In this document: one piece after another, positions 7,188 to 60,585 of the stretch
How positions within the stretch are numbered: the first letter of the stretch is position 1
Layout: every line of letters begins with the position of its first letter
From: Alphaproteobacteria bacterium
GTDB taxonomy: Bacteria > Pseudomonadota > Alphaproteobacteria > JAAXGF01
Reading direction: 5' to 3'
Assembly: GCA_963555825.3 (NCBI GenBank)
Contig: CAUVXB020000002.1
Location: forward strand, 960,001-1,024,000
DNA length: 64,000 nt
The notes under the pieces: model-generated
What the model saw: the letters and a program-made list of their open reading frames with translations, nothing else
What the model was told of the DNA's origin: nothing
Database searches by the model: none
Made by a program: the position numbers and the translations under genes

Positions 7188-7484
7188 GCTGACCTAGCGC
7201 CGGAAACCGGGCGCAACAGGTCGAAATTTCAAACTCTCCGCCGCCAAGGTCGGCTTACGGGCGTAAAGCGGACACCGCGCCCGATCACGCCGCATGTCCG
7301 GTCATAGCCGAGGCTGCTGAAAAAGTCCTGATAACTCCAATTTGAGCCCGAATTGGCCAAATTTGCGAATTTGAAATTTTCCTAAACCATTGATTTTATT
7401 GAAGTTTAATTTTCGTTGTTTCCGGGAAATCCACGAATTCGGACCCTCAAAAGAGTTCTTCAACACCCTCGGCCATAACCGGAC
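7188..7484. repeat. short array of GTC...GAC palindromic units (same family as 51336-60246)
   Basis: 25-nt unit GTCGGCTTACGGGCGTAAAGCGGAC (7249-7273), 22-nt spacer, 24-nt unit GTCCGGTCATAGC|CATAACCGGAC split by a MITE; degenerate unit ending 7212 lies 36 nt upstream. Confidence 0.75.
7309..7471. mobile_element. MITE with IS1182-type ends
   Basis: Ends CGAGGCTGCTGAAAAAGTC / GAGTTCTTCAACACCCTCG; right end matches the IR of the IS at 51457-53038; AT-rich interior; GC duplication. Confidence 0.75.
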
Positions 7485-49488: not shown

Positions 49489-50892
49489 ATGCTGCGCGTC
49501 CTCTATTTCGTTTTCGTCGTCGCGCTCGCCACCCTGGCGGCGCTTTGGCTCGTTGACCTGCCCGACGCAGTCACCATCGACGGACCCGACTATCAGCTGA
49601 CCACGTCGCTGTCGGTGCTGATCGTCGCGGTCGCCGCGATCGCCGTCGTCTGGGCGCTGGTCTATCACGTTTGGCGCTGGCTGCGCGGCGGGCCACGACG
49701 CATCGCCGCTGGTTGGTCGGCGCGCCGCCACGACCGCGGCTACCAGGCGCTGACCAAGGGCCTGGTCGCGATCGCCGCGGGCGACGCCAAGGCGGCGCAG
49801 CGCTTCGGCCGCGATTCGGGCCGCCTGCTCGACAACCCGCTGAACCTGCTGGTGCTGGCGCAATCGGCGCGGCTCACCGGCGACGAGACCGGCGCGCGGC
49901 GCCATTTCCAGGCCATGCTCGTGCATCCCGAGACCGAGTTCCTCGGCCTGCGCGGCCTGTTGGTGCAGGCGACCAACGCGGGTGACTGGGAAGCCGCGCT
50001 GGGCTATGCGCGGCGCGCCTACGCGCTCAGGCCCGAGACCGAATGGGTCGGCAACGCGCTGTTCGACCTCCAAGCCCGCGCCGGCGACTGGCGCGCGGCG
50101 CAGAAGACGCTCGAGGCGGCGGTCCGGCGCAAGCATGTCGCCGCTGGCCACGCGCCGCGCCGCCGCGCGGTATTGCTCGCCGAGCGCGCCCGCGCGGCCT
50201 ATGGCGACGGCGAGGAGGCCGCGGCGCTCGGCCTGGCGCGTGAGGCGCACAAGCTGGCGCCGTCGCTGACCGCCGCCGCGGCACTCGCCGCCGGGTTGCT
50301 GGCGAAAACGGGCAAGAAGCGCGCGGCGGCCAAGGTGATCGAGGCGGCGTGGCGCCTCGCGCCGCACGGCGAGTTGGCAGCCGCTTACGCCGCGCTCGGC
50401 GCCGGCGAGAGCGCGCTGGAGCGCGTCAAGCGCCTCGAGCGCCTGCACGCCCTCAACGCGGACCATCCCGAGAGCCACCTGGCGCTCGCCCAAGCCGCGC
50501 TCGACGCCGAGCTCTGGGGCGCCGCGCGCAACCACCTGCTGGCGGCCGCCGACCGGCAACCGTCACAGTGCGTCTACCGCCTGCTGGCCACCGCCGAGGA
50601 GCGCGATTCGGGCAGCGCCGAGGCGGTGCGCAACTGGCTGATGAGCGCCGCCTCGGCGCCGCCCGATCCGGCCTGGCTGTGCGACAAATGCGGCGACGCG
50701 GCGGCCGAATGGAGCGCGCGCTGCGAGGCCTGCGGCGCCTTCGACAGCTTAGGTTGGAAACTGCCGCCGACGCCCGCGCATCTCTCGGCGGCGCCGGTTA
50801 CCACGCCGCTGCCGCGCGCCGACGACGCACCGCTTCCGTCGGCCTCGATCGCGCCGCCGGGTGCCGTTGACGACATCGCGACGCGGGAGTAG
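49489..50892 (+). CDS. HemY-N/TPR membrane protein
   Basis: Two TM, ALTKGLVAIAAGD, TEFLGLRGL, TPRs, C-terminal CxxC..CxxC. Confidence 0.88.
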   Translation: MLRVLYFVFVVALATLAALWLVDLPDAVTIDGPDYQLTTSLSVLIVAVAAIAVVWALVYHVWRWLRGGPRRIAAGWSARRHDRGYQALTKGLVAIAAGDAKAAQRFGRDSGRLLDNPLNLLVLAQSARLTGDETGARRHFQAMLVHPETEFLGLRGLLVQATNAGDWEAALGYARRAYALRPETEWVGNALFDLQARAGDWRAAQKTLEAAVRRKHVAAGHAPRRRAVLLAERARAAYGDGEEAAALGLAREAHKLAPSLTAAAALAAGLLAKTGKKRAAAKVIEAAWRLAPHGELAAAYAALGAGESALERVKRLERLHALNADHPESHLALAQAALDAELWGAARNHLLAAADRQPSQCVYRLLATAEERDSGSAEAVRNWLMSAASAPPDPAWLCDKCGDAAAEWSARCEACGAFDSLGWKLPPTPAHLSAAPVTTPLPRADDAPLPSASIAPPGAVDDIATRE

Positions 50893-50904
50893 CTTGGCGC
50901 CCGT

Positions 50905-50979
<75 letters not shown>

Positions 50980-51456
50980 TATTTTTCAATAGGTTACGTG
51001 AATCTCTTCTTCACCATCTTTTGACCGAGTGACCTTAAAGTGAGCTGACTATTTCACTTCACAGGTCGCTCACATACTCATTTTGTCGACCGGCTCGGGC
51101 GGCTCCTTCCGAACGAAATTGTGATTTGGCAGGCTGTGTTGCGCCTGATCACCAAGACCAAACGCGTGCCTTACTCAGTTATCCAAGGGGGTAGCGTATG
51201 GGCCACCCGGGGGTCTATGGATACGTTTGTATGAACCGCGCTACGAGATCAATTATTTGGTTGGTACCATTGATCGGTCAAATTCGACGAATTCTCGGAC
51301 ATTGACGTTTAGTTTTCCGGCTGCCTCATTCCGAGGTCCGCTTTCGAGCGGTATGCCGACATGGAATGCCTTGTCCCGCGATCCAGTGTCTCTGAGGTCT
51401 GCTTACGAGTGGAAACCGGACATTGCAGCGTGGTTCGTCTAACGTCAGCTTCTAGC

Positions 51457-53038
51457 CGAGGGTGTTGAAGAAGTTGTTCGATCGGTCGGGGTTGCTGTGA
51501 TTCCCTGCTTGTGATGATTTGAGCAGGGGATCGAAGCGATGATGGGCGAACCTGTTGGTCGACAAGACCGTCTATTCTATGCGTTCGATCTCGAGGCTAT
51601 GGTACCGGCCGATCATTTGTTGCGCCGGATCGATGCGGCTTTGGACCTGAGCTGGCTGCGCGGCGAGCTGAAGACCCATTACAGTCACCTGGGCTGCCCG
51701 TCGGTCTGTCCCGAGCTGATGGTCCGGATGCTGATTGTTGGCTACTGCCATTCGATCCGTTCGGAGCGGCGGCTGTGCCAGGAGGTGAAGGTGAACCTGG
51801 CGTACCGCTGGTTCTGCGGCTTAGGCTTGGAGGACAAGGTTCCCAACCATTCGACGTTTTCGGTGAACCGGCACGGCCGGTTCCGCGCGAGCGATCTGCT
51901 GCGCAAGGTCTTCGAGGATGTCGTGCGGCGCTGCATGACGGCGGGTCTGGTCGGTGGCGAGGGCTTTGCCGGGGACGCCTCGGTGATCGAGGCCAATGCC
52001 AGCCGTTATCAGCGCATCGAGGGCTCGGAGGTCGATTGGACGGCCGAGCAGCGAGCCAGTCGCCCGGTGAGTGAGTACCTGGCCGCGCTGGAGAGCGAGA
52101 ACCCGCCGACCGACCCCGTGCGCGAGCCCAAGGCGATGTCGCCGAGCGACCCCGCGGCGGCCTGGACGACGCGTGGGCGCGCCAAGGTGATGTTCGGCTA
52201 CAGCCTCAACTATCTGATCGACACCGGCCACGCCGTCATCGTCGATGTCGAGGCGACGCCGACGCGCATCTCGAAAGAAGTCGTGGCCACCGAGACGATG
52301 ATCGAGCGCACGCAAGAGCGCTTCGCGCTCAAGCCCGAGCGCCTGGCCGGCGATGTCGCCTATGGCACGGGCGAGATGCTCGGCTGGCTTCTCGACCATG
52401 ACATCGCGCCGCACATCCCGGTCTGGGACAAGAGCGAACGCGACGATGGCATCTTCTCACGGGCCGACTTCATCTACGACGAGGCGCGCGACCGCTACAT
52501 CTGTCCCGGCGGCAAGGCCTTGACGACCACCGGCAATCTCCACTCCGACAACACCTATCGCTATCGCGCCAGCAAGCGTGATTGCGACGCCTGCGCGCTG
52601 AAGCCGAGATGCTGTCCCGACACAGCGGCGCGCCGGGTCCCGCGCGAGGTGAACGAGGCGGCTCGTGACCACACCCGCGCCTTGATGGAGACCGAGGCTT
52701 ACGCGGCGTCGCGCACGGAACGTAAGAAGATCGAAAGGCTCTTCGGCGAGGCCAAGCACATTCTCTCGATGGTTCGCCTGCGATTGCGGGGCCTGACCGG
52801 CGCCCGCGACGAGTTCCTGCTGACCGCCACCGTCCAGAACCTGAGACGCCTCGTCAATCACACCACGAGACCGCCACCACGGCCCATGATGGCTTGATCC
52901 ATGCCGCAAAGCCTCATCCAACCAAGCCATAGGCGCAAAACCGCCTCGGCAGCGCGCCAAGGCGGAAACGAAAACATTTGCTGCTTCTATAAGCCGACAC
53001 CGGAACGCCGTTCCGATACGACTTCTTCAACACCCTCG
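51457..53038 (+). mobile_element. IS1182-family element
   Basis: Perfect IR CGAGGGTGTTGAAGAAGT / ACTTCTTCAACACCCTCG; inserted in a 24-nt array unit. Confidence 0.92.
51539..52897 (+). CDS. IS1182-family transposase
   Basis: VPADHLLR, SERRLC..NLAYRWFCG, PNHSTFS, GDVAYG, KIERLFG. Confidence 0.93.
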   Translation: MMGEPVGRQDRLFYAFDLEAMVPADHLLRRIDAALDLSWLRGELKTHYSHLGCPSVCPELMVRMLIVGYCHSIRSERRLCQEVKVNLAYRWFCGLGLEDKVPNHSTFSVNRHGRFRASDLLRKVFEDVVRRCMTAGLVGGEGFAGDASVIEANASRYQRIEGSEVDWTAEQRASRPVSEYLAALESENPPTDPVREPKAMSPSDPAAAWTTRGRAKVMFGYSLNYLIDTGHAVIVDVEATPTRISKEVVATETMIERTQERFALKPERLAGDVAYGTGEMLGWLLDHDIAPHIPVWDKSERDDGIFSRADFIYDEARDRYICPGGKALTTTGNLHSDNTYRYRASKRDCDACALKPRCCPDTAARRVPREVNEAARDHTRALMETEAYAASRTERKKIERLFGEAKHILSMVRLRLRGLTGARDEFLLTATVQNLRRLVNHTTRPPPRPMMA

Positions 53039-53042
53039 GCTA

Positions 53043-53290
53043 TGTGTGGACGGCCCCGGTTTGGCAAGGGTTGTTTTGACGGTGATGCAAGTTGGTCGGG
53101 TGCGGCTATGTGTTCGGCCTGTTTGCGCGATACGACGATCGCTGGCCCTAATGCGATCCGCGGATCGGGTCCCAACTAAACCCACGAGCTCAGTGGCTCC
53201 GTAGCCAAGACGGGTTTCTCCGATCCCCGGTGTTCGACCGGTCTTGCATTACCTCACGATCACCCTGCCAAAGGGTTTAAGGCGTCTGTC
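53043..53290 (-). ncRNA. putative bridge/seek RNA region of IS1111-type element (second copy 57033-57282)
   Basis: Long non-coding end containing short matches to the element termini (TATGTGT, TAATG) and to the insertion flank (TAGC); inferred from IS110/IS1111 biology. Confidence 0.6.
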
Positions 53291-54322
53291 TCAAGCGGCG
53301 GTGACTGCTGGCTGACGGTAGGTTCCACCGTTGGCGAGCAGCGCCCAGGCGGTTCGTGCGTTCTTGTTGGCCAGCGCCACGGCGGCGAGCTTGGTCGGTT
53401 TGCGCGCCATGAGATCGCCCAGCCAAGGGTTCTTCTCGAAGTTTGATCTTCGCCCGTGGCGTATCACCGTCATGGCGCCGGCGACGAGCAGCCACCGGAG
53501 GTAGTGGTCACCCGCCTTGGAGATGCGGCCGAGCCGCTGCTTGCCGCCGGTCGAGGTCTGTCTGGGCACCAGACCGATCCAAGCCGCCAGTTCACGCCCC
53601 GATCTGAACACCGAAGGGTCGGCGATCGAGGCCGCCAGCGCGCTCGCAGTGATTGGCCCGATGCCGGGTATGGTCGCCAGACGCTGGCTGACCTCGGTCG
53701 CTCGATGCCAGGCATGAATGCGCTGCTCGGTGGTGGTGATCTCACGCTCCAGCGATAACAACTGCCGCGCCAGTCCTTCCAGGCATGTTCGTGCCAATGG
53801 CGGGATGCGCTCATCGCCCTCATCAGCGATGACCGCGAGGAGTTCCTTCACCTGCGGCAGCCCGACCCGGGCGACGACCCCGAACTCCGCCATGTGCGCG
53901 CGGATCGCGTTGACCAGCATGGTCCGCTGCCGAACCAGGAGTTCGCGCGTCCGGTGGTCCATCAACACGCTCTGCTGCGCGGCCGTCTTGACCGCCACGA
54001 AACGCATCGATGGCCGCGTTACCGCTTCGCAGATCGCTTCGGCATCCGCCGCGTCGTTCTTGTTGCGCTTGACGTAGGGCTTCACGTAAGCCGCCGGCAT
54101 GATGCGCACCTCATGGCCAAGCGCCCCGAGTTCCCGCGCCCAATGGTGCGACGTCGCGCAGGCCTCGATACCGACCAGACAAGCCGGCTGCTTGCTGAAG
54201 AACGGCACAACCTGGCGGCGCCTCAGTTGCCGGCGGATCACGGTCTCGCCTGAGACATCGACCCCGTGAACCTGGAAAACGTTCTTCGCAAGATCAAGTC
54301 CGATCGTGTTAACCTCGGTCAT
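53291..54322 (-). CDS. IS110-family recombinase
   Basis: IGLDLAK, IEAC, KNDAADAEAI DEDD motifs; IPGIG, GLVPRQTSTGG. Confidence 0.95.
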   Translation of the reverse strand: MTEVNTIGLDLAKNVFQVHGVDVSGETVIRRQLRRRQVVPFFSKQPACLVGIEACATSHHWARELGALGHEVRIMPAAYVKPYVKRNKNDAADAEAICEAVTRPSMRFVAVKTAAQQSVLMDHRTRELLVRQRTMLVNAIRAHMAEFGVVARVGLPQVKELLAVIADEGDERIPPLARTCLEGLARQLLSLEREITTTEQRIHAWHRATEVSQRLATIPGIGPITASALAASIADPSVFRSGRELAAWIGLVPRQTSTGGKQRLGRISKAGDHYLRWLLVAGAMTVIRHGRRSNFEKNPWLGDLMARKPTKLAAVALANKNARTAWALLANGGTYRQPAVTAA

Positions 54323-54556
54323 AGGACGGCTCCTTTGTACGTGATCAGCCAACAGCTACCACTTCTGGCACCTAGATGCCGCGTGGGGCCGTCCACCCCA
54401 TTATGAGCAGACATTAGGCTCGCTGCGCTGCGACGTCTGCTTTCCGCTCGGAAGCGGACGTGCATGTCATGAAAATTGGAAGCCGCACGTATTAGGTCCG
54501 GTTACCGCCCGAAAGCGGACGTCGCGCACCTACGTCGCTAATGTCTGCTGCTGACC

Positions 54557-56238
54557 CAGCCTGTGTGAAAACGTCGATGGTGTTATGATTCTCTTGTGCT
54601 TTGGCGGGAGGGTCTGATGAAGCGTTTTGTGGAGGGTGTCGATCGCAGCCAGGGCACGTTGTTTCCCGAGCGCCTGGAAGACTGGATCGGCGAGGACACC
54701 CCGGTTCGGGCGATCGACGTCTTCGTCGATGAGCTCGATCTTGGGGGTCTCGGGTTCGACCGGGTCGCGCCGCTGGCGACCGGCAGGCCGGCCTATCATC
54801 CTTGCGATTTGTTGAAGCTCTACATCTACGGCTATCTCAACCGGGTTCAGTCGAGCCGTCGGCTCGAGAGGGAGGCCGGGCGCAATGTGGAAGTGATGTG
54901 GCTGGTCGGCCGGCTGGCGCCGGATCACAAGACGATCGCCGACTTCCGCAAGGACAACGGCTGCGATCCGCAAGGTCTGCGCCCGGTTCGTCGCCCTGTG
55001 CCGGCAACTGGGGCTGTTCGCCGAGGCGAGCGTGGCGATCGATGGCGCCAAGTTCAAGGCGGTCAACAGCCGGGACAGGAACTTCACGCGGGCCAAGATG
55101 GCGCGGCGGGTGGCGCAGATCGAGGAGAGCGTTGCACGCTATCTGCAGCAACTCGACAGCGCCGACCGGCAAGAGCCGTCGCTGGCGCGCACGACCAAGA
55201 CGACTCGTCTGGCCGACAAGATTGCGATCCTCAAGGAGGAGATGCGGCGCCTGAAGGCGCTTGAAGTCGAGAGGCGTGCGAGCCCGGACCAGCAGAGCTC
55301 TCTGAGCGATCCCGATGCCCGCTCGATGGCGACGAGCGGCCGGGGTTCCGGCGTGGTGGGCTACAACGTTCAGGCCGCCGTCGACACCAAGCATCACCTG
55401 ATCGTTGCCCACGAGGTGACCAATCAGGGCACCGACCGCGCCCAGCTCTCAGCCATGGCGAAGCGGACCAAGGCGGCTCTGGAGACCGACGAGTTGGATG
55501 TCGTTGCCGATCGCGGCTACTACAACGGCAAGGAGATTCTGGCCTGCGATGAGGCCGGCATCACCGTCACGTTGCCTAAGCCGCTGACCTCGGGAGCCAA
55601 GGCCAAGGGCCGCTTCGGCAAACAGGACTTCGTCTATCTGGCCGCCGACGATGTCTATCGCTGCCCGGCCGGCGAGCGTTTGGTCTACCGCTTCACCAGC
55701 CAGGAGAGTGGGCTGAGCATGCGGCGCTACTGGACCAACGCCTGTCAGGGATGCGCCATCAAGCATCGCTGCACCACGGCCAAGCAGCGCCGCATCACCC
55801 GTTGGCAGCACGAACACATTCTCGAGGCCGTCGAGAGGCGGCTCGACGAGCACCCGGAGGCGATGCGTCGGCGGCGCGAGACGGCCGAGCAACCCTTCGG
55901 CACCCTCAAGGCCTGGATGGGCGCGACGCACTTCCAGATGAAGACGCTGAAGCGGGTGAGGACCGAGATGGCCTTGCACGTGCTGGCCTACAATCTCAAG
56001 CGCGTCATGAACATCATGGGCATCGACCCGCTGATCGCGGCGATCAGGACGGCATAGCGCCCCTGCGCCGACAATTACGCCCATACCCGGCCACATCGCG
56101 GCTCACAACGGCGCCAGCCGGCCGAAAAGCCCGCACGAGCGGCGAAAATCCATAATCCCGGAAAACACGTCCCGACTGATCATCCAAACCCAAAGACGCG
56201 CCACACAGAAATAGCAGCAAACGTTCTCACACAAACTG
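54557..56238 (+). mobile_element. IS1182-family element (frameshifted copy)
   Basis: IR CAGCCTGTGTGAAAAC / GTTCTCACACAAACTG; TSD GACC. Confidence 0.9.
54617..56057 (+). pseudogene. IS1182 transposase, frameshifted near 54960
   Basis: AACGGCTGCG versus AACGGCCGTGCG in the intact copy at 58609 (2-bp deletion). Confidence 0.9.
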
Positions 56239-56374
56239 GACCCAAAGCGGACCTCTTCTTTCTCCAATTGGAGTGACTGCTTTTGACCCCGACGAGATGT
56301 ATCTGGTCCTGGCGGCTTTTCACGGGATCTAGACATTTATACAAGAGAAACTGGTCCGGTGCTATGATGGGCCC

Positions 56375-56995
56375 ATGTCACAGATCGAATCTCTTTTCGT
56401 CACCCGTCTCTACCGCTCTGCCCTGTCCGAGTTCTGCAAGGCGCCGGATGCGGCCGAGCTTGAAACCTCCTGCCTGTCGATTGCCGATGATGATAAGGCC
56501 GGGCAGGTATGGTGCGAGGAACATGATTATCCGGGTTATACCAGCTATGCCTCGCTGGACGATCTGGCTTGGCGGTTTCCGATCTTCAAGGATCTGGTCC
56601 CGGTGCTCGATAAACATGTCGCGACCTTTGTCAAGGACTTGCAATTCGATCTGGACGGCAAGAAGGTCAGGCTGAATAGTCTGTGGATCAACATCTTGCC
56701 CGAAGGCGGCGTGCATACGTCGCATTTGCATCCCCATAGCGTGATCAGCGGCACCGCCTATGTCACGGTGCCGAACGGCGCAAGTGCCATCAAGTTCGAA
56801 GACCCGCGGTCGGCAATGATGATGGCGGCACCGGAGCGCGAGGTCGAAGCACGGAACGAACTGCGCAAGTTCATCTATGTCGTGCCCCAGGCAGGCGAGG
56901 TTTTGCTTTGGGAAAGCTGGCTACGCCACGAAGTTCCTCAGAACAAGGCCGATGAGGAACGCATCAGCATCAGTTTCAATTATGGCTGGGAGTGA
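56375..56995 (+). CDS. TIGR02466-like putative 2OG-Fe(II) oxygenase
   Basis: YPGYTSYASL, WINIL, HLHPHSVISGTAY, FEDPR, WESWLRHEV, RISISFNY. Confidence 0.88.
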   Translation: MSQIESLFVTRLYRSALSEFCKAPDAAELETSCLSIADDDKAGQVWCEEHDYPGYTSYASLDDLAWRFPIFKDLVPVLDKHVATFVKDLQFDLDGKKVRLNSLWINILPEGGVHTSHLHPHSVISGTAYVTVPNGASAIKFEDPRSAMMMAAPEREVEARNELRKFIYVVPQAGEVLLWESWLRHEVPQNKADEERISISFNYGWE

Positions 56996-57032
56996 CGTGC
57001 CCGTGGAGGGTTGTCCCGTCCACACATGGCTA

Positions 57033-58395
57033 TGTGTGGACGGCCCCGATTTGGCAAGGGTTGTTTTGACGGTCATGCAAGTTGGTCGGGTGCGGCTATG
57101 TGTCCGGCCTGTTGATGCGGTGCTCTTGACCGCTGGCCCTAATGCGATCCGCGGGATCGGGTCCCAACTAAACCCACGAGCTCAGTGGCTCCGTAGCCAA
57201 GACGGGTTTCTCCGATCCCCGGTGTTCGACCGGTCTTGCATTACCTCACGATCACCCTGCCAAAGGGTTTAAGGCGTCTGTCTCAAGCGGCGGTGACTGC
57301 TGGCTGACGGTAGGTTCCACCGTTGGCGAGCAGCGCCCAGGCGGTTCGTGCGTTCTTGTTGGCCAGCGCCACGGCGGCGAGCTTGGTCGGTTTGCGCGCC
57401 ATGAGATCGCCCAGCCAAGGGTTCTTCTCGAAGTTTGATCTTCGCCCGTGGCGTATCACCGTCATGGCGCCGGCGACGAGCAGCCACCGGAGGTAGTGGT
57501 CACCCGCCTTGGAGATGCGGCCGAGCCGCTGCTTGCCGCCGGTCGAGGTCTGTCTGGGCACCAGACCGATCCAAGCCGCCAGTTCACGCCCCGATCTGAA
57601 CACCGAAGGGTCGGCGATCGAGGCCGCCAGCGCGCTCGCAGTGATTGGCCCGATGCCGGGTATGGTCGCCAGACGCTGGCTGACCTCGGTCGCTCGATGC
57701 CAGGCATGAATGCGCTGCTCGGTGGTGGTGATCTCACGCTCCAGCGACAGCAACTGCCGCGCCAGTCCTTCCAGGCATGTTCGTGCCAATGGCGGGATGC
57801 GCTCATCGCCCTCATCAGCGATGACCGCGAGGAGTTCCTTCACCTGCGGCAGCCCGACCCGGGCGACGACCCCGAACTCCGCCATGTGCGCGCGGATCGC
57901 GTTGACCAGCATGGTCCGCTGCCGAACCAGGAGTTCGCGCGTCCGGTGGTCCATCAACACGCTCTGCTGCGCGGCCGTCTTGACCGCCACGAAACGCATC
58001 GATGGCCGCGTTACCGCTTCGCAGATCGCTTCGGCATCCGCCGCGTCGTTCTTGTTGCGCTTGACGTAGGGCTTCACGTAAGCCGCCGGCATGATGCGCA
58101 CCTCATGGCCAAGCGCCCCGAGTTCCCGCGCCCAATGGTGCGACGTCGCGCAGGCCTCGATACCGACCAGACAAGCCGGCTGCTTGCTGAAGAACGGCAC
58201 AACCTGGCGGCGCCTCAGTTGCCGGCGGATCACGGTCTCGCCTGAGACATCGACCCCGTGAACCTGGAAAACGTTCTTCGCAAGATCAAGTCCGATCGTG
58301 TTAACCTCGGTCATAGGACGGCTCCTTTGTACGTGATCAGCCAACAGCTACCACTTCTGGCACCTAGATGCCGCGTGGGGCCGTCCACCCCATTA
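57033..58395 (-). mobile_element. IS110-family (IS1111-type) element, copy 2
   Basis: Same ends and identical protein as copy 1; non-coding end locally diverged. Confidence 0.9.
57283..58314 (-). CDS. IS110-family recombinase
   Basis: Translation identical to 53291..54322. Confidence 0.95.
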   Translation of the reverse strand: MTEVNTIGLDLAKNVFQVHGVDVSGETVIRRQLRRRQVVPFFSKQPACLVGIEACATSHHWARELGALGHEVRIMPAAYVKPYVKRNKNDAADAEAICEAVTRPSMRFVAVKTAAQQSVLMDHRTRELLVRQRTMLVNAIRAHMAEFGVVARVGLPQVKELLAVIADEGDERIPPLARTCLEGLARQLLSLEREITTTEQRIHAWHRATEVSQRLATIPGIGPITASALAASIADPSVFRSGRELAAWIGLVPRQTSTGGKQRLGRISKAGDHYLRWLLVAGAMTVIRHGRRSNFEKNPWLGDLMARKPTKLAAVALANKNARTAWALLANGGTYRQPAVTAA

Positions 58396-58548
58396 ATCCC
58401 GGAAATTAGAAAGGGCGGGCCGCAACGTCCGCTTTCCGCTCGTTAGCAGACCCTCGCGCCGAGGAATTCAGAAATCCGGCAGTCAATGTCTGGTTCGCGC
58501 GACAAAGCAGACGTTGGAGGCGACACCGTCTAACGTCTGCTGGTGACC

Positions 58549-60232
58549 CAGACTGTGTAAAAACGTCGATGGTGTTATGATTCTCTCGTGCTTTGGCGGG
58601 AGGGTCTGATGAAGCGTTTTGTCGAGGGTGTCGATCGCAGCCAGGGCACGTTGTTTCCGGAGCGCCTGGAAGACTGGATCGGCGACGACAACCCGGTTCG
58701 GGCGATCGACGTCTTCGTCGATGAGCTCGATCTTGGCGGCCTCGGGTTCGACCGGGTCGAGCCGCTGGCGACCGGCAGGCCGGCCTATCATCCTTGCGAT
58801 TTGTTGAAGCTCTACATCTACGGCTATCTCAACCGGGTTCAGTCGAGCCGTCGGCTCGAGAGGGAGGCCGGGCGCAATGTGGAAGTGATGTGGCTGGTCG
58901 GCCGGCTGGCGCCGGATCACAAGACGATCGCCGACTTCCGCAAGGACAACGGCCGTGCGATCCGCAAGGTCTGCGCCCGGTTCGTCGCGCTGTGCCGGCA
59001 ACTCGGGCTGTTCGCCGAGGCGAGCGTGGCGATCGATGGCTCGAAGTTCAAGGCGGTCAACAGCCGGGACAGGAACTTCACGCGGGCCAAGATGGCGCGG
59101 CGGGTGGCGCAGATCGAGGAGAGCGTTGCGCGCTATCTGGACCAGTTGGACAGCGCCGACCGGCAAGAGCCGTCGCTGGCGCGCACGACCAAGACGACTC
59201 GTCTGGCCGACAAGATCGCGATCCTCAAGGAGGAGATGCGGCGCCTGAAGGCGCTTGAAGTCGAGCGGCGTGCGAGCCCGGACCAGCAGATCTCTCTGAG
59301 CGATCCCGATGCCCGCTCGATGGCGACGAGCGGCCGGGGTTCCGGCGTGGTCGGCTACAACGTTCAGGCCGCCGTCGACACCAAGCACCACCTGATCGTC
59401 GCCCACGAGGTGACCAATCAGGGCACCGACCGCGCCCAGCTCTCAGCCATGGCGAAGCGGACCAAGGCGGCTCTGGAGACCGACGAGTTGGATGTCGTTG
59501 CCGATCGCGGCTACTACAACGGTAAGGAGATTCTGGCCTGCGATGAGGCCGGCATCACCGTCACATTGCCTAAGCCGCTGACCTCTGGAGCCAAGGCCAA
59601 GGGCCGCTTCGGCAAACAGGACTTCGTCTATCTGGCCGCCGACGATGTCTATCGCTGCCCGGCCGGCGAGCGTTTGGTCTACCGCTTCACCAGCCAGGAG
59701 AGGGGGCTGAGCATGCGGCGCTACTGGACCAACGCCTGTCAGGGATGCGCCATCAAGCATCGCTGCACCACGGCCAAGCAGCGCCGCATCACCCGCTGGC
59801 AGCACGAGCATGTTCTCGAGGCCGTCGAGAGGCGGCTCGACGAGCACCCGGAGGCGATGCGTCGGCGGCGCGAGACGGCCGAGCATCCCTTCGGCACCAT
59901 CAAGTCCTGGATGGGCGCGACGCATTTCCAGACGAAGACGCTGAAACGGGTGAGGACCGAGATGGCCCTGCACGTGCTGGCCTACAATCTCAAGCGCGTC
60001 ATGAACATCACGGGCATCGACCCGCTGATCGCGGCGATGAGGACCGCATAGGCCTCTCTGCGCCGCAAATTGCGCCCATATCCGGCCAAATCGCAGCTCA
60101 CACCGGCGCCAGCCGGCCGACAGGTCCGCACGAGTGGCGAAAATCCTTAATCCCGGAATACCCGCCGCGACGGATCATCGAAGCCAAAGACGCGCCGTAC
60201 AGATCACGCAGCAAACGTTCTTACACAGTCTG
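58549..60232 (+). mobile_element. IS1182-family element (intact copy)
   Basis: IR CAGACTGTGTAAAAAC / GTTCTTACACAGTCTG; TSD GACC. Confidence 0.92.
58609..60051 (+). CDS. IS1182-family transposase
   Basis: GRPAYHP, SSRRLERE, PDHKTIADFR, IDGSK, ADRGY, EHPFGTIK. Confidence 0.94.
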   Translation: MKRFVEGVDRSQGTLFPERLEDWIGDDNPVRAIDVFVDELDLGGLGFDRVEPLATGRPAYHPCDLLKLYIYGYLNRVQSSRRLEREAGRNVEVMWLVGRLAPDHKTIADFRKDNGRAIRKVCARFVALCRQLGLFAEASVAIDGSKFKAVNSRDRNFTRAKMARRVAQIEESVARYLDQLDSADRQEPSLARTTKTTRLADKIAILKEEMRRLKALEVERRASPDQQISLSDPDARSMATSGRGSGVVGYNVQAAVDTKHHLIVAHEVTNQGTDRAQLSAMAKRTKAALETDELDVVADRGYYNGKEILACDEAGITVTLPKPLTSGAKAKGRFGKQDFVYLAADDVYRCPAGERLVYRFTSQERGLSMRRYWTNACQGCAIKHRCTTAKQRRITRWQHEHVLEAVERRLDEHPEAMRRRRETAEHPFGTIKSWMGATHFQTKTLKRVRTEMALHVLAYNLKRVMNITGIDPLIAAMRTA

Positions 60233-60261
60233 GACCCGAAGTCGACCTTGAGCAGGTCAAT

Positions 60262-60585
60262 TCAAACGCTTTGCATGGCGTTCACAATCGCCCTTGTCAG
60301 TGTCAGAAAGCGGCAGCAGACGTCGCCCTCAGGGTCCAGCCGCAAGACATCGGCCTTGAAAGCTTCTTGTTTGAGGCCGCCCCAAGCAACGACAGTGCCC
60401 TCGAGTGTTTCACCCGGGCGCACAGGGCGATGGAAGCCGCTGATCTGAAATCCGCCAATCGACCAGTCGGTGGTCTTGTAATTGTGATCCTCGAAGCGAA
60501 GTGTCAGCCGCGGCATCACGTGACGTGAATGTTGACGCTGCTCGCGCCCGCCGGGGAACTTTGGATTGCTCTTCTCCCGCCCCAT
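60262..60585 (-). CDS. stand-alone PilZ-domain protein
   Basis: EQRQHSR (RxxxR) and DWSIGG (DxSxxG) c-di-GMP motifs; AGAGG RBS. Confidence 0.8.
   Translation of the reverse strand: MGREKSNPKFPGGREQRQHSRHVMPRLTLRFEDHNYKTTDWSIGGFQISGFHRPVRPGETLEGTVVAWGGLKQEAFKADVLRLDPEGDVCCRFLTLTRAIVNAMQSV

Follow-up and report, generated by a model that had tools for sequence, protein, structure and literature searches.

Why do mobile elements of different families settle in one short palindromic repeat and leave the repeat beside it alone? The question is raised by a 64,000-nt stretch of the alphaproteobacterial assembly GCA_963555825.3 (contig CAUVXB020000002.1, here called C2; the stretch, C2:960001-1024000, is referred to as the window at its full length), taken from a host genome of 6.04 Mb and 65% G+C in two contigs, C1 and C2. 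A composite repeat array is present in three copies at 51.3-60.3 kb of the window; all of its 24-nt units there are interrupted, and all six of its 25-nt units are intact. An earlier note, made from these letters alone, had proposed that unrelated types of insertion sequence (IS) insert only into the 24-nt unit, being a distinct, multi-copy and accessible site and perhaps the crossover site of the array system. Here, I show that the insertion into the 24-nt unit is real, in the window as well as across the genome (32 of 35 element pairs, see below), and that this unit is a distinct, multi-copy and specifically chosen insertion site. Very probably it is hit because its sequence is recognised, and by two different mechanisms: one belonging to elements of the IS1182 family, the other to elements of the IS110 family.

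Each array copy contains two inner 25-nt hairpin units (of the GTCCGCTTTCCGCTCGGAAGCGGAC type) and, some 17-22 nt away, outer units of 24 nt, which read GTCYGC-N3-T-[4 nt]-M-N3-GCRGAC and mostly have ATTRG after them. The 24-nt units stand at the outer ends of the array in inverted orientation, the recurrent layout being 24u-25u-25u-24u. Genome-wide, 48 good 25-nt units are found in 44 clusters, and the 24-nt unit occurs 28 times intact and at least 32 times occupied. The 28 unoccupied loci are those scoring at least 16 bits, after the removal of four IS-junction artefacts, with a profile that returned 37 matches in the real genome and 3 in the reversed one; their centres are AGCC (11), GACC (7), AACC (4), GGCC (2), and AGAC, GAGC, AGCA and GATC (one each). 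Made of short imperfect palindromes that are dispersed, clustered and predicted to form hairpins, the array is a composite repeat similar to repetitive extragenic palindromes (REP) and bacterial interspersed mosaic elements (BIME), the 24-nt unit being its outer hairpin and the 25-nt units its inner ones. When the sequence was read against a mechanical, overlapping list of open reading frames (ORFs), none of the window units was seen within a family-matched coding gene. An Rfam search of window positions 50800-60400 (E up to 1) returned a transfer RNA (tRNA) only, and no family for the arrays or for the IS110 non-coding region.

Two of the element types in the window, IS1182A and IS1182B, are distant members of the IS1182 family: both transposases lie above the NF033551 cut-off of 270 bits (401.3 and 452.9 bits), both carry Pfam DUF772, DDE_Tnp_1_6 and DDE_Tnp_1, and they share 26% identity (E 5e-26). 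The family models agree with the names that the earlier note had given to the elements (IS1182, IS110); as to their being unrelated, this holds for the IS110 type with respect to the IS1182 types, but the latter two are one family. IS1182A and IS1182B have terminal inverted repeats. Element ends were fixed by genome-wide comparison. IS1182B is represented by 30 BLAST copies of 1400 nt or more, and by 64 end matches when derivatives of about 160 bp, i.e. miniature inverted-repeat transposable elements (MITEs), are included. The transposase frame of its first window copy is split (window 54596-56057), as it is near residues 116-123 in four other genome copies and near residue 150 in a fifth; in at least 19 copies the frame is intact, the encoded proteins being 99-100% identical.

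A strict half-unit motif begins exactly 14 nt before 38 of the 64 IS1182B ends, as against 3.2% of 200,000 random positions. Both ends were found for 35 elements, 24 of the IS1182B type and 11 of the IS1182A/MITE type, and the joined flanks match at least 8 of the 12 stem positions of the unit in 32 of them (22/24 and 10/11, respectively), a score reached by 1.65% of 300,000 random 24-mers (binomial P = 6e-54). Set against the 25-nt profile, the same 35 sites score 2.8 bits at best, compared with at least 8.3 bits (median 28.9) for the 48 real 25-nt units. The insertion point of both IS1182 types and of the MITEs is the dyad centre, the central 4 bp being duplicated. Flanking 4-mers are identical in 20 of the 24 IS1182B-type pairs, and since even the rare variants (GAAC, GTCC, AGCC) agree on both sides, the 4-bp target duplication of IS1182B is real. 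Among 19 full-length copies that could be oriented, 15 have GACC as the left 4-mer when read along the element, none has GGTC, and the remaining four have GGCT, GGCC, GAAC and GTCC, once each. The duplications of the 11 IS1182A/MITE pairs are often imperfect; their centres are AGCC, GGCT or GGCC (an RGCY preference), and the one pair outside the units duplicates CTAG. The two window copies of IS1182B, with GACC on both sides, and the MITE that splits a 24-nt unit are as the earlier note had described them. In the explanation favoured here, DDE elements of the IS1182 family and their MITEs integrate at the dyad centre and duplicate its central 4 bp, IS1182B taking GACC centres in one orientation, IS1182A and the MITE taking RGCY centres, and it would be the transposase itself that reads the site.

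Is this target choice peculiar to one genome? The IS1182B transposase was not found (E up to 1e-50) in the genomes of 40 relatives, 12 of them of the same family and mostly fragmented assemblies, and no empty orthologous site was obtained. A multi-species collection yielded 80 foreign loci with transposases 71-82% identical to that of IS1182B, mostly from alphaproteobacterial metagenome-assembled genomes, with a few Bradyrhizobium and Methylocystis records. The left flank is GACC in 60 of the 73 usable loci, GGTC in 9, GATC in 3 and another 4-mer in 1. Among the 60 loci with both ends called, the 4-mers are identical in 43 and at least 8 of the 12 stem positions are matched in 45, both counts being lowered by some right-end calls that are clearly wrong. 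The termini of these relatives (CTGG...CCAA) are unlike those of IS1182B, yet their flanks are the same. The unit target is a property of the IS1182B transposase clade, and its orientation preference is strong, though not absolute. The exact pattern GACCCRAAGCRGACAT, searched in three foreign genomes that hold relatives, gave one match, in one of the three, and is too strict to be informative.

The question may be asked whether the half-units are targets at all, or extended terminal repeats that belong to the elements and are carried along with them, no target being chosen. The flanks do look like inverted repeats, the unit being a palindrome, and the final 5 nt of IS1182B (CAGAC / GTCTG) equal the unit stems. 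In addition, the flanking 4-mers are inverted (GGTC...GACC or the reverse) in 4 of the 60 foreign loci (L035, L052, L064, L111), as expected from recombination between oppositely oriented copies. On the other hand, element copies are 95-98% identical while their flanks vary at the N3 positions and beyond, hence the flanks are targets and not parts of the element. Moreover, the 4-mers are direct repeats in most pairs, with co-varying rare variants, uninterrupted units exist, and the outer flanks belong to different array copies. That half-units travel with the elements is scarcely credible. Mimicry of the unit stems by the IS1182B termini was likewise considered as the cause of targeting and rejected, as the foreign relatives share the flanks but not the termini.

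A different objection is that structure alone would suffice, any accessible hairpin or cruciform attracting elements and the 24-nt unit being the most exposed. The IS1182 family offers a precedent: IS1272 and TnSha1, from staphylococci, target short inverted-repeat hairpins, e.g. of 22-30 bp, with little conservation of primary sequence; for IS1272 the structure is described as recognised without primary sequence, with no target duplication, the hairpin being deleted or replaced (PMC5678879, PMC4923244, in the portions available). Insertion at the dyad centre of a potential hairpin would fit as well. However, the 25-nt units form the more stable hairpins (median -4.95 kcal/mol with DNA parameters, versus -1.75 for the 24-nt units), yet none of the 35 insertions resembles them. 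Each of the two IS1182 lineages has its own specific centre tetranucleotide, the orientation of IS1182B is fixed in the studied genome (15 versus 0), 4 bp are duplicated here and none for IS1272, and GACC recurs in the foreign relatives. By inspection of 24-nt flanks, and with no formal count, no unit centre was seen to hold the TA-duplicating IS that has 139 end matches. A hairpin chosen for its structure is, on balance, quite unlikely. Accessibility, which the earlier note had put forward as the cause, does not account for stable hairpins left unhit, for one fixed position and, in IS1182B, one orientation, and gives way to sequence recognition, by the centre tetranucleotide in the IS1182 types and by RNA guide segments in the IS110 type. 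In the explanation by sequence, the 25-nt unit would escape, in spite of being the better hairpin, for want of the T-RRCY-M centre and of the sequence matched by the guide segments described below.

As for the IS110 type, the IS110a transposase is of the DEDD type (PF02371, 97.7 bits; PF01548, 48.1 bits) and scores 340.3 bits against NF033542, 'RNA-guided transposase' (cut-off 140). Its ORF is followed by 248 nt of non-coding DNA and preceded by 51 nt, and the repeats GTGGACGGCCCC / GGGGCCGTCCAC sit 3-7 nt inside the element ends. Judged by its downstream non-coding region, subterminal repeats and DEDD transposase, IS110a is assigned to the IS1111 group of the IS110 family. Three sister elements are present in the genome: IS110a, with five copies that have a left end and a unit-like right half in all five; IS110b, about 77% identical to it; and IS110c, about 73% identical to it, with five full copies.

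When the three non-coding regions are aligned, the scaffold is conserved and three short segments change along with each element's own junctions. Segments 1, 2 and 3 are, respectively, GGCTA+TGTGT, CTA+AACCCAC and UUGGCUA in IS110a; TGCCA+TGTGT, TCA+TAAGCAC and AUAGCCA in IS110b; and AGTCT+TGTGT, TAT+CTGCTTAGC and AAUGUCC in IS110c. The left flank is GGCTA for IS110a (5/5), AGCCA, GCCA, GTCA and others for IS110b, and AATGTC(C/T) for IS110c (5/5 full copies), and the right junctions (the junction being marked ^) are ATTA^TACCCGGAC and similar for IS110a, ATCA^TAAGCGGAC for IS110b, and CAT^CTGCTTA for IS110c. Given these matches of segments with flanks and junctions, both IS110a and IS110b would read the unit centre together with the right half, each on a different strand of this near-palindrome. 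IS110a and IS110b insert one base beyond the tetranucleotide (GGCTA^T.AGCRGAC). The co-variation is the pattern expected of guidance by a seekRNA or bridge RNA: such an RNA, from the 3' non-coding region and with variable segments matching the unit centre and right half, would direct them there.

IS110c is found outside the window; its insertion site, AATGT-CT-GCTT, lies in the 5' stem present in both unit types. A truncated copy of it adjoins a 25-nt unit at C1:941207, and another IS110c flank resembles a 25-nt variant. The earlier note had suggested comparing 24- and 25-nt units genome-wide, holding that copies at unrelated sites, or equally often in 25-nt units, would speak against its claim; the comparison is favourable for IS1182A/MITE, IS1182B and IS110a/b, and IS110c goes part of the opposite way, by its use of the shared stem and by the one truncated copy abutting a 25-nt unit.

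Upstream of full copies, left-end fragments of IS110b (71, 96, 134, 139 and 296 nt) also form tandem arrays. Every fragment terminates internally, at a site like the element's own target junction (..CCA^TGTGTGG), which suggests repeated self-targeting.

How can two element types occupy one unit? In the window, IS110a copy 1 begins 1 nt after the IS1182A duplication, and both split the unit whose halves lie at 51444-51457 and 54404-54412, bearing out the earlier observation of an IS1182 and an IS110 element within a few nt of each other. An IS1182-type end followed one base later by an IS110-type end is also seen at C1:2233731, C2:1506302 and C2:2409232. The IS1182 duplication leaves an IS110 target intact (the tetranucleotide, one base and the right half), therefore both types can occupy one unit. 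The second IS110a copy, likewise said to sit in a unit, is a less complete case: its right half is recognisable, but in place of a left half there is an inverted IS110 remnant and TGGCTA, in a head-to-head layout matching that of a complete IS110b/IS110a pair at C2:525382-525397.

A model of random insertion, in which selection leaves survivors in harmless intergenic repeats only, would agree with the position of the window arrays between genes. It cannot yield single-nucleotide precision, a fixed 4-bp duplication and a fixed orientation, though, and it would spare the adjacent 25-nt units and the spacers equally, none of which is represented among the 35 sites; next to no probability is given to it.

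The earlier suggestion that crossover takes place at the 24-nt unit, in a dedicated array recombination system that keeps the site open for IS to exploit, is in keeping with the inverted 24-nt units at the outer array ends. Nevertheless, no recombinase gene is associated with the window arrays, and the centre tetranucleotides differ between the two ends of an array (three arrays, by eye); the lack of an Rfam match for the arrays points the same way. REP/BIME-type repeats may go with a cognate gene for a REP-associated tyrosine transposase (RAYT), flanked by the same repeats. Three RAYT-like genes (Y1, PF01797 matches) exist in the genome, at C2:1867017, C1:1325246 and C2:2727747, but no 25-nt unit or AAGCRGAC/GTCYGCTT core was found within 1.5 kb of any of them, the 24-nt unit not having been scanned for there. 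At least two of the three are bracketed by AT-rich palindromic repeats of their own, unrelated to the studied arrays. A crossover site is thus highly improbable.

Several points weigh against recognition of the unit by its sequence as set out here. Three of the 35 paired IS1182-type insertions lie outside recognisable units, and 9 of the 73 foreign relatives have the opposite orientation, so that orientation specificity is not absolute in the clade. The insertions are historical, and duplicated or recombined copies are not independent: one right flank is common to two IS1182B copies, and the flanks of two IS110c copies are the same. As insertion sites served to train the 24-nt profile, its scores for those sites are circular; independent of that training are only the stem-score test, the comparisons with random sequence and the 25-nt profile. 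Units with a GACC centre are for the most part occupied (at least 17 pairs, against 7 empty units), which is explained only by an assumed saturation. The second segment of IS110a fits the observed right flanks partly, in the best case at 5-6 of 8 positions. Lastly, contigs from four runs, two of RNA libraries and two whose type is not recorded, cover the elements (IS110 region 53038-53591) and are uninformative on transcription, ends and strand; their loose ends over the elements match the flanks of other copies in the same genome, and no empty-site joint was found in them.

How does this system compare with known ones? Elements of the families IS3, IS110, IS4, IS256 and IS5 are described as targeting REP elements (Tobes and Pareja 2006, PMC1525189, in the part of the paper available), the cases being ISRm22 and ISRm19, of two families in one genome, that of Sinorhizobium meliloti, ISPpu9/ISPpu10, ISPa11 and ISPsy8, with IS1397/ISKpn1 and IS621 cited. 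For the DDE element ISRm22, insertion lies 'just at the palindromy axis' and is accompanied by a short direct repeat; ISPpu9 and ISPpu10 have one common insertion point. The likeness lies in several unrelated families acting on one repeat in one genome and in the insertion at the palindrome axis; what those authors call a type 1 association, that of a REP-recognising IS, is seen here in the 22/24 IS1182B-type and 10/11 IS1182A/MITE-type pairs and in the five IS110a right halves. The differences are that the IS1182 family is not named in that part of the paper, that the duplication is of 4 bp here and not 6, that two IS1182 lineages divide the unit subtypes by centre tetranucleotide, and that only one of the two hairpin types of the composite repeat is used. 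A literature search found no paper naming both ISRm22 and IS1182, and a limited one, supplementary files excluded, found none on REP-targeting by an IS1182-family element in Alphaproteobacteria. With IS1272/TnSha1, going by the accessible text of the papers cited above, the transposase family and a hairpin target are shared, but the present elements are specific for centre sequence and orientation, duplicate 4 bp, leave both hairpin halves in place and pass over stronger hairpins nearby; the studied IS1182 elements do not show the structure-dependent hairpin replacement of IS1272.

For the IS1111-type seekRNAs of ISEc11, ISKpn4 and ISPa11, downstream non-coding segments matching both target strands have been demonstrated experimentally (PMC11187229), and IS621 has the bridge RNA of the IS110 family (PMC11208160), as given in the available parts of these papers. 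The DEDD transposase, the long downstream non-coding region and the subterminal repeats are common to them and to the present elements, as are segments matching both target strands and REP-type targets. The RNA of a seekRNA-guided element, some 80-100 nt long, comes from that non-coding region and is required for transposition; here it is a predicted one. No difference in kind is apparent. Particular to this genome are three sisters with different guide segments at correspondingly different positions of one host repeat, the unit centre on either strand for IS110a/b and the 5' stem for IS110c.

Table 1. Positions of repeat units and elements, in window coordinates unless a contig is named
Feature	Position	Strand	Details
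24-nt unit split by a MITE with IS1182A-type ends	7296-7484	not assigned	161-bp MITE 7310-7470; unit halves 7296-7309 and 7471-7484; flanks AGCC 7306-7309, GGCC 7471-7474
First array, two intact 25-nt units	51336-51360, 51397-51421	not assigned	
24-nt unit, left half	51444-51457	+	with left duplication copy AGCC (51454-51457)
IS1182A	51458-53037	+	1580 bp, single genome copy, terminal inverted repeats; transposase 51539-52897, 452 aa
GGCT and A	53038-53042	+	right duplication copy GGCT (53038-53041); with A, left flank GGCTA matching IS110a guide segments
IS110a copy 1, IS1111-like	53043-54403	-	transposase 54352-53291, minus strand
IS110a copy 1, non-coding region	53043-53290		248 nt, downstream of transposase
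IS110a copy 1, subterminal inverted repeats			GTGGACGGCCCC / GGGGCCGTCCAC
Three variable non-coding segments matching junctions	within 53104-53208	-	
Segment GGCTA+TGTGT	53104-53113	-	
Segment CTA+AACCCAC	53176-53185	-	
Segment complementary to UUGGCUA	53202-53208	-	
24-nt unit, right half (TGAGCAGAC)	54404-54412	+	completes the unit begun at 51444-51457; then ATTAG and second array
Second array, two intact 25-nt units	54435-54459, 54496-54520	not assigned	
24-nt unit, left half	54543-54556	+	with GACC (54553-54556)
IS1182B copy 1	54557-56238	+	1682 bp, transposase frame split into two ORFs
GACC and unit right half (CAAAGCGGAC)	56239-56252	+	
Inverted remnant of IS110 left end, then TGGCTA	57018-57032	not assigned	remnant of 11-13 nt; no unit half
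IS110a copy 2	57033-58395	-	98.8% identical to copy 1
Degenerate 24-nt unit right half (ATCCCGGAA) and ATTAG	58396-58409	+	right half 58396-58404; then third array
Third array, two intact 25-nt units	58427-58451, 58488-58512	not assigned	
24-nt unit, left half	58535-58548	+	with GACC (58545-58548)
IS1182B copy 2	58549-60232	+	1684 bp, intact 487-aa transposase (58588-60051)
GACC and unit right half (CGAAGTCGAC)	60233-60246	+	
IS110c sites elsewhere in the genome	C2:1573111, 2178966, 2558329, 2721582, 3618136; C1:941235		
IS110b fragment arrays elsewhere in the genome	C2:2097960-2099652; C1:169598-170053; C2:1402805-1403874; C1:2233731-2234568		

Other features of the window and of the genome may be noted in passing (positions of the elements and units themselves are given in Table 1). 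Immediately before the IS-rich arrays there is a tRNA gene (window 50905-50976; Rfam, 74 bits), which may mark an island boundary. Seven ORFs are listed between the second and third arrays, of which one was compared with family libraries; this ORF, a TIGR02466-family putative 2OG-Fe(II) oxygenase gene at window 56375-56995, is the sole non-IS gene found there. The commonest IS of the genome, the TA-duplicating one mentioned above, measures 1172 bp and has ends TACCAGTGAGC; its size and duplication, taken alone, make it IS630-like. It is found genome-wide (e.g. at C2:1095929 and C2:2450689, outside the window). In six copies of IS1182B it occupies one and the same position of the right inverted repeat, and in three copies of IS110a one and the same position of the non-coding region. 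An element with ends TGAGGCGTTTGCTGTCAAGG (C2:1503423, C2:3498612 and 10 others) was considered as a fifth unit-targeting IS. Its ends are always preceded by GTCTCCTTATA, which resembles a 24-nt unit half, and 8 of the 12 share 30 identical upstream bases, the half-unit being part either of the element or of a larger repeated segment; as the preceding 11 nt are the same in 12/12 ends, the stretch is probably the element's own and the candidate was rejected.

A further idea concerns the origin of the arrays, which may themselves be old products of non-autonomous IS1182-type transposition, with unit halves as their ends. Each insertion into a 24-nt unit would then rebuild a hairpin at every junction and multiply its own target; rebuilding of this kind is visible in IS1182B, whose junctions each form a 19-nt GTCTG...CAGAC hairpin. 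If true, which is very unlikely, the repeat family and a site- and orientation-specific DDE clade would propagate each other in dozens of alphaproteobacterial genomes.

To sum up, targeting of repeated palindromes by several IS families is already established, and RNA guidance of IS110/IS1111 elements has been known since 2024; therefore, recognition of the 24-nt unit by its sequence opens no new category. It is nonetheless an unusually rich natural case, particular in the sequence- and orientation-specific targeting by IS1182 elements with a 4-bp duplication, the partition of unit subtypes between two lineages, the high occupancy of the unit and a natural series of retargeted IS1111-type guides. 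As its target is strict, about 20 bp long and kept in 60 of the 73 foreign relatives, the IS1182B clade, protein-only and with an orientation preference, is a candidate for studying or borrowing site-specific DDE integration, and the sisters IS110a, b and c may serve as a natural reprogramming series for seekRNA or bridge RNA. Since the RNA-guided target survives the 4-bp duplication, one 24-nt site can accommodate both mechanisms. In annotation, this accounts for the nesting of IS-rich islands inside the arrays of the studied genome.

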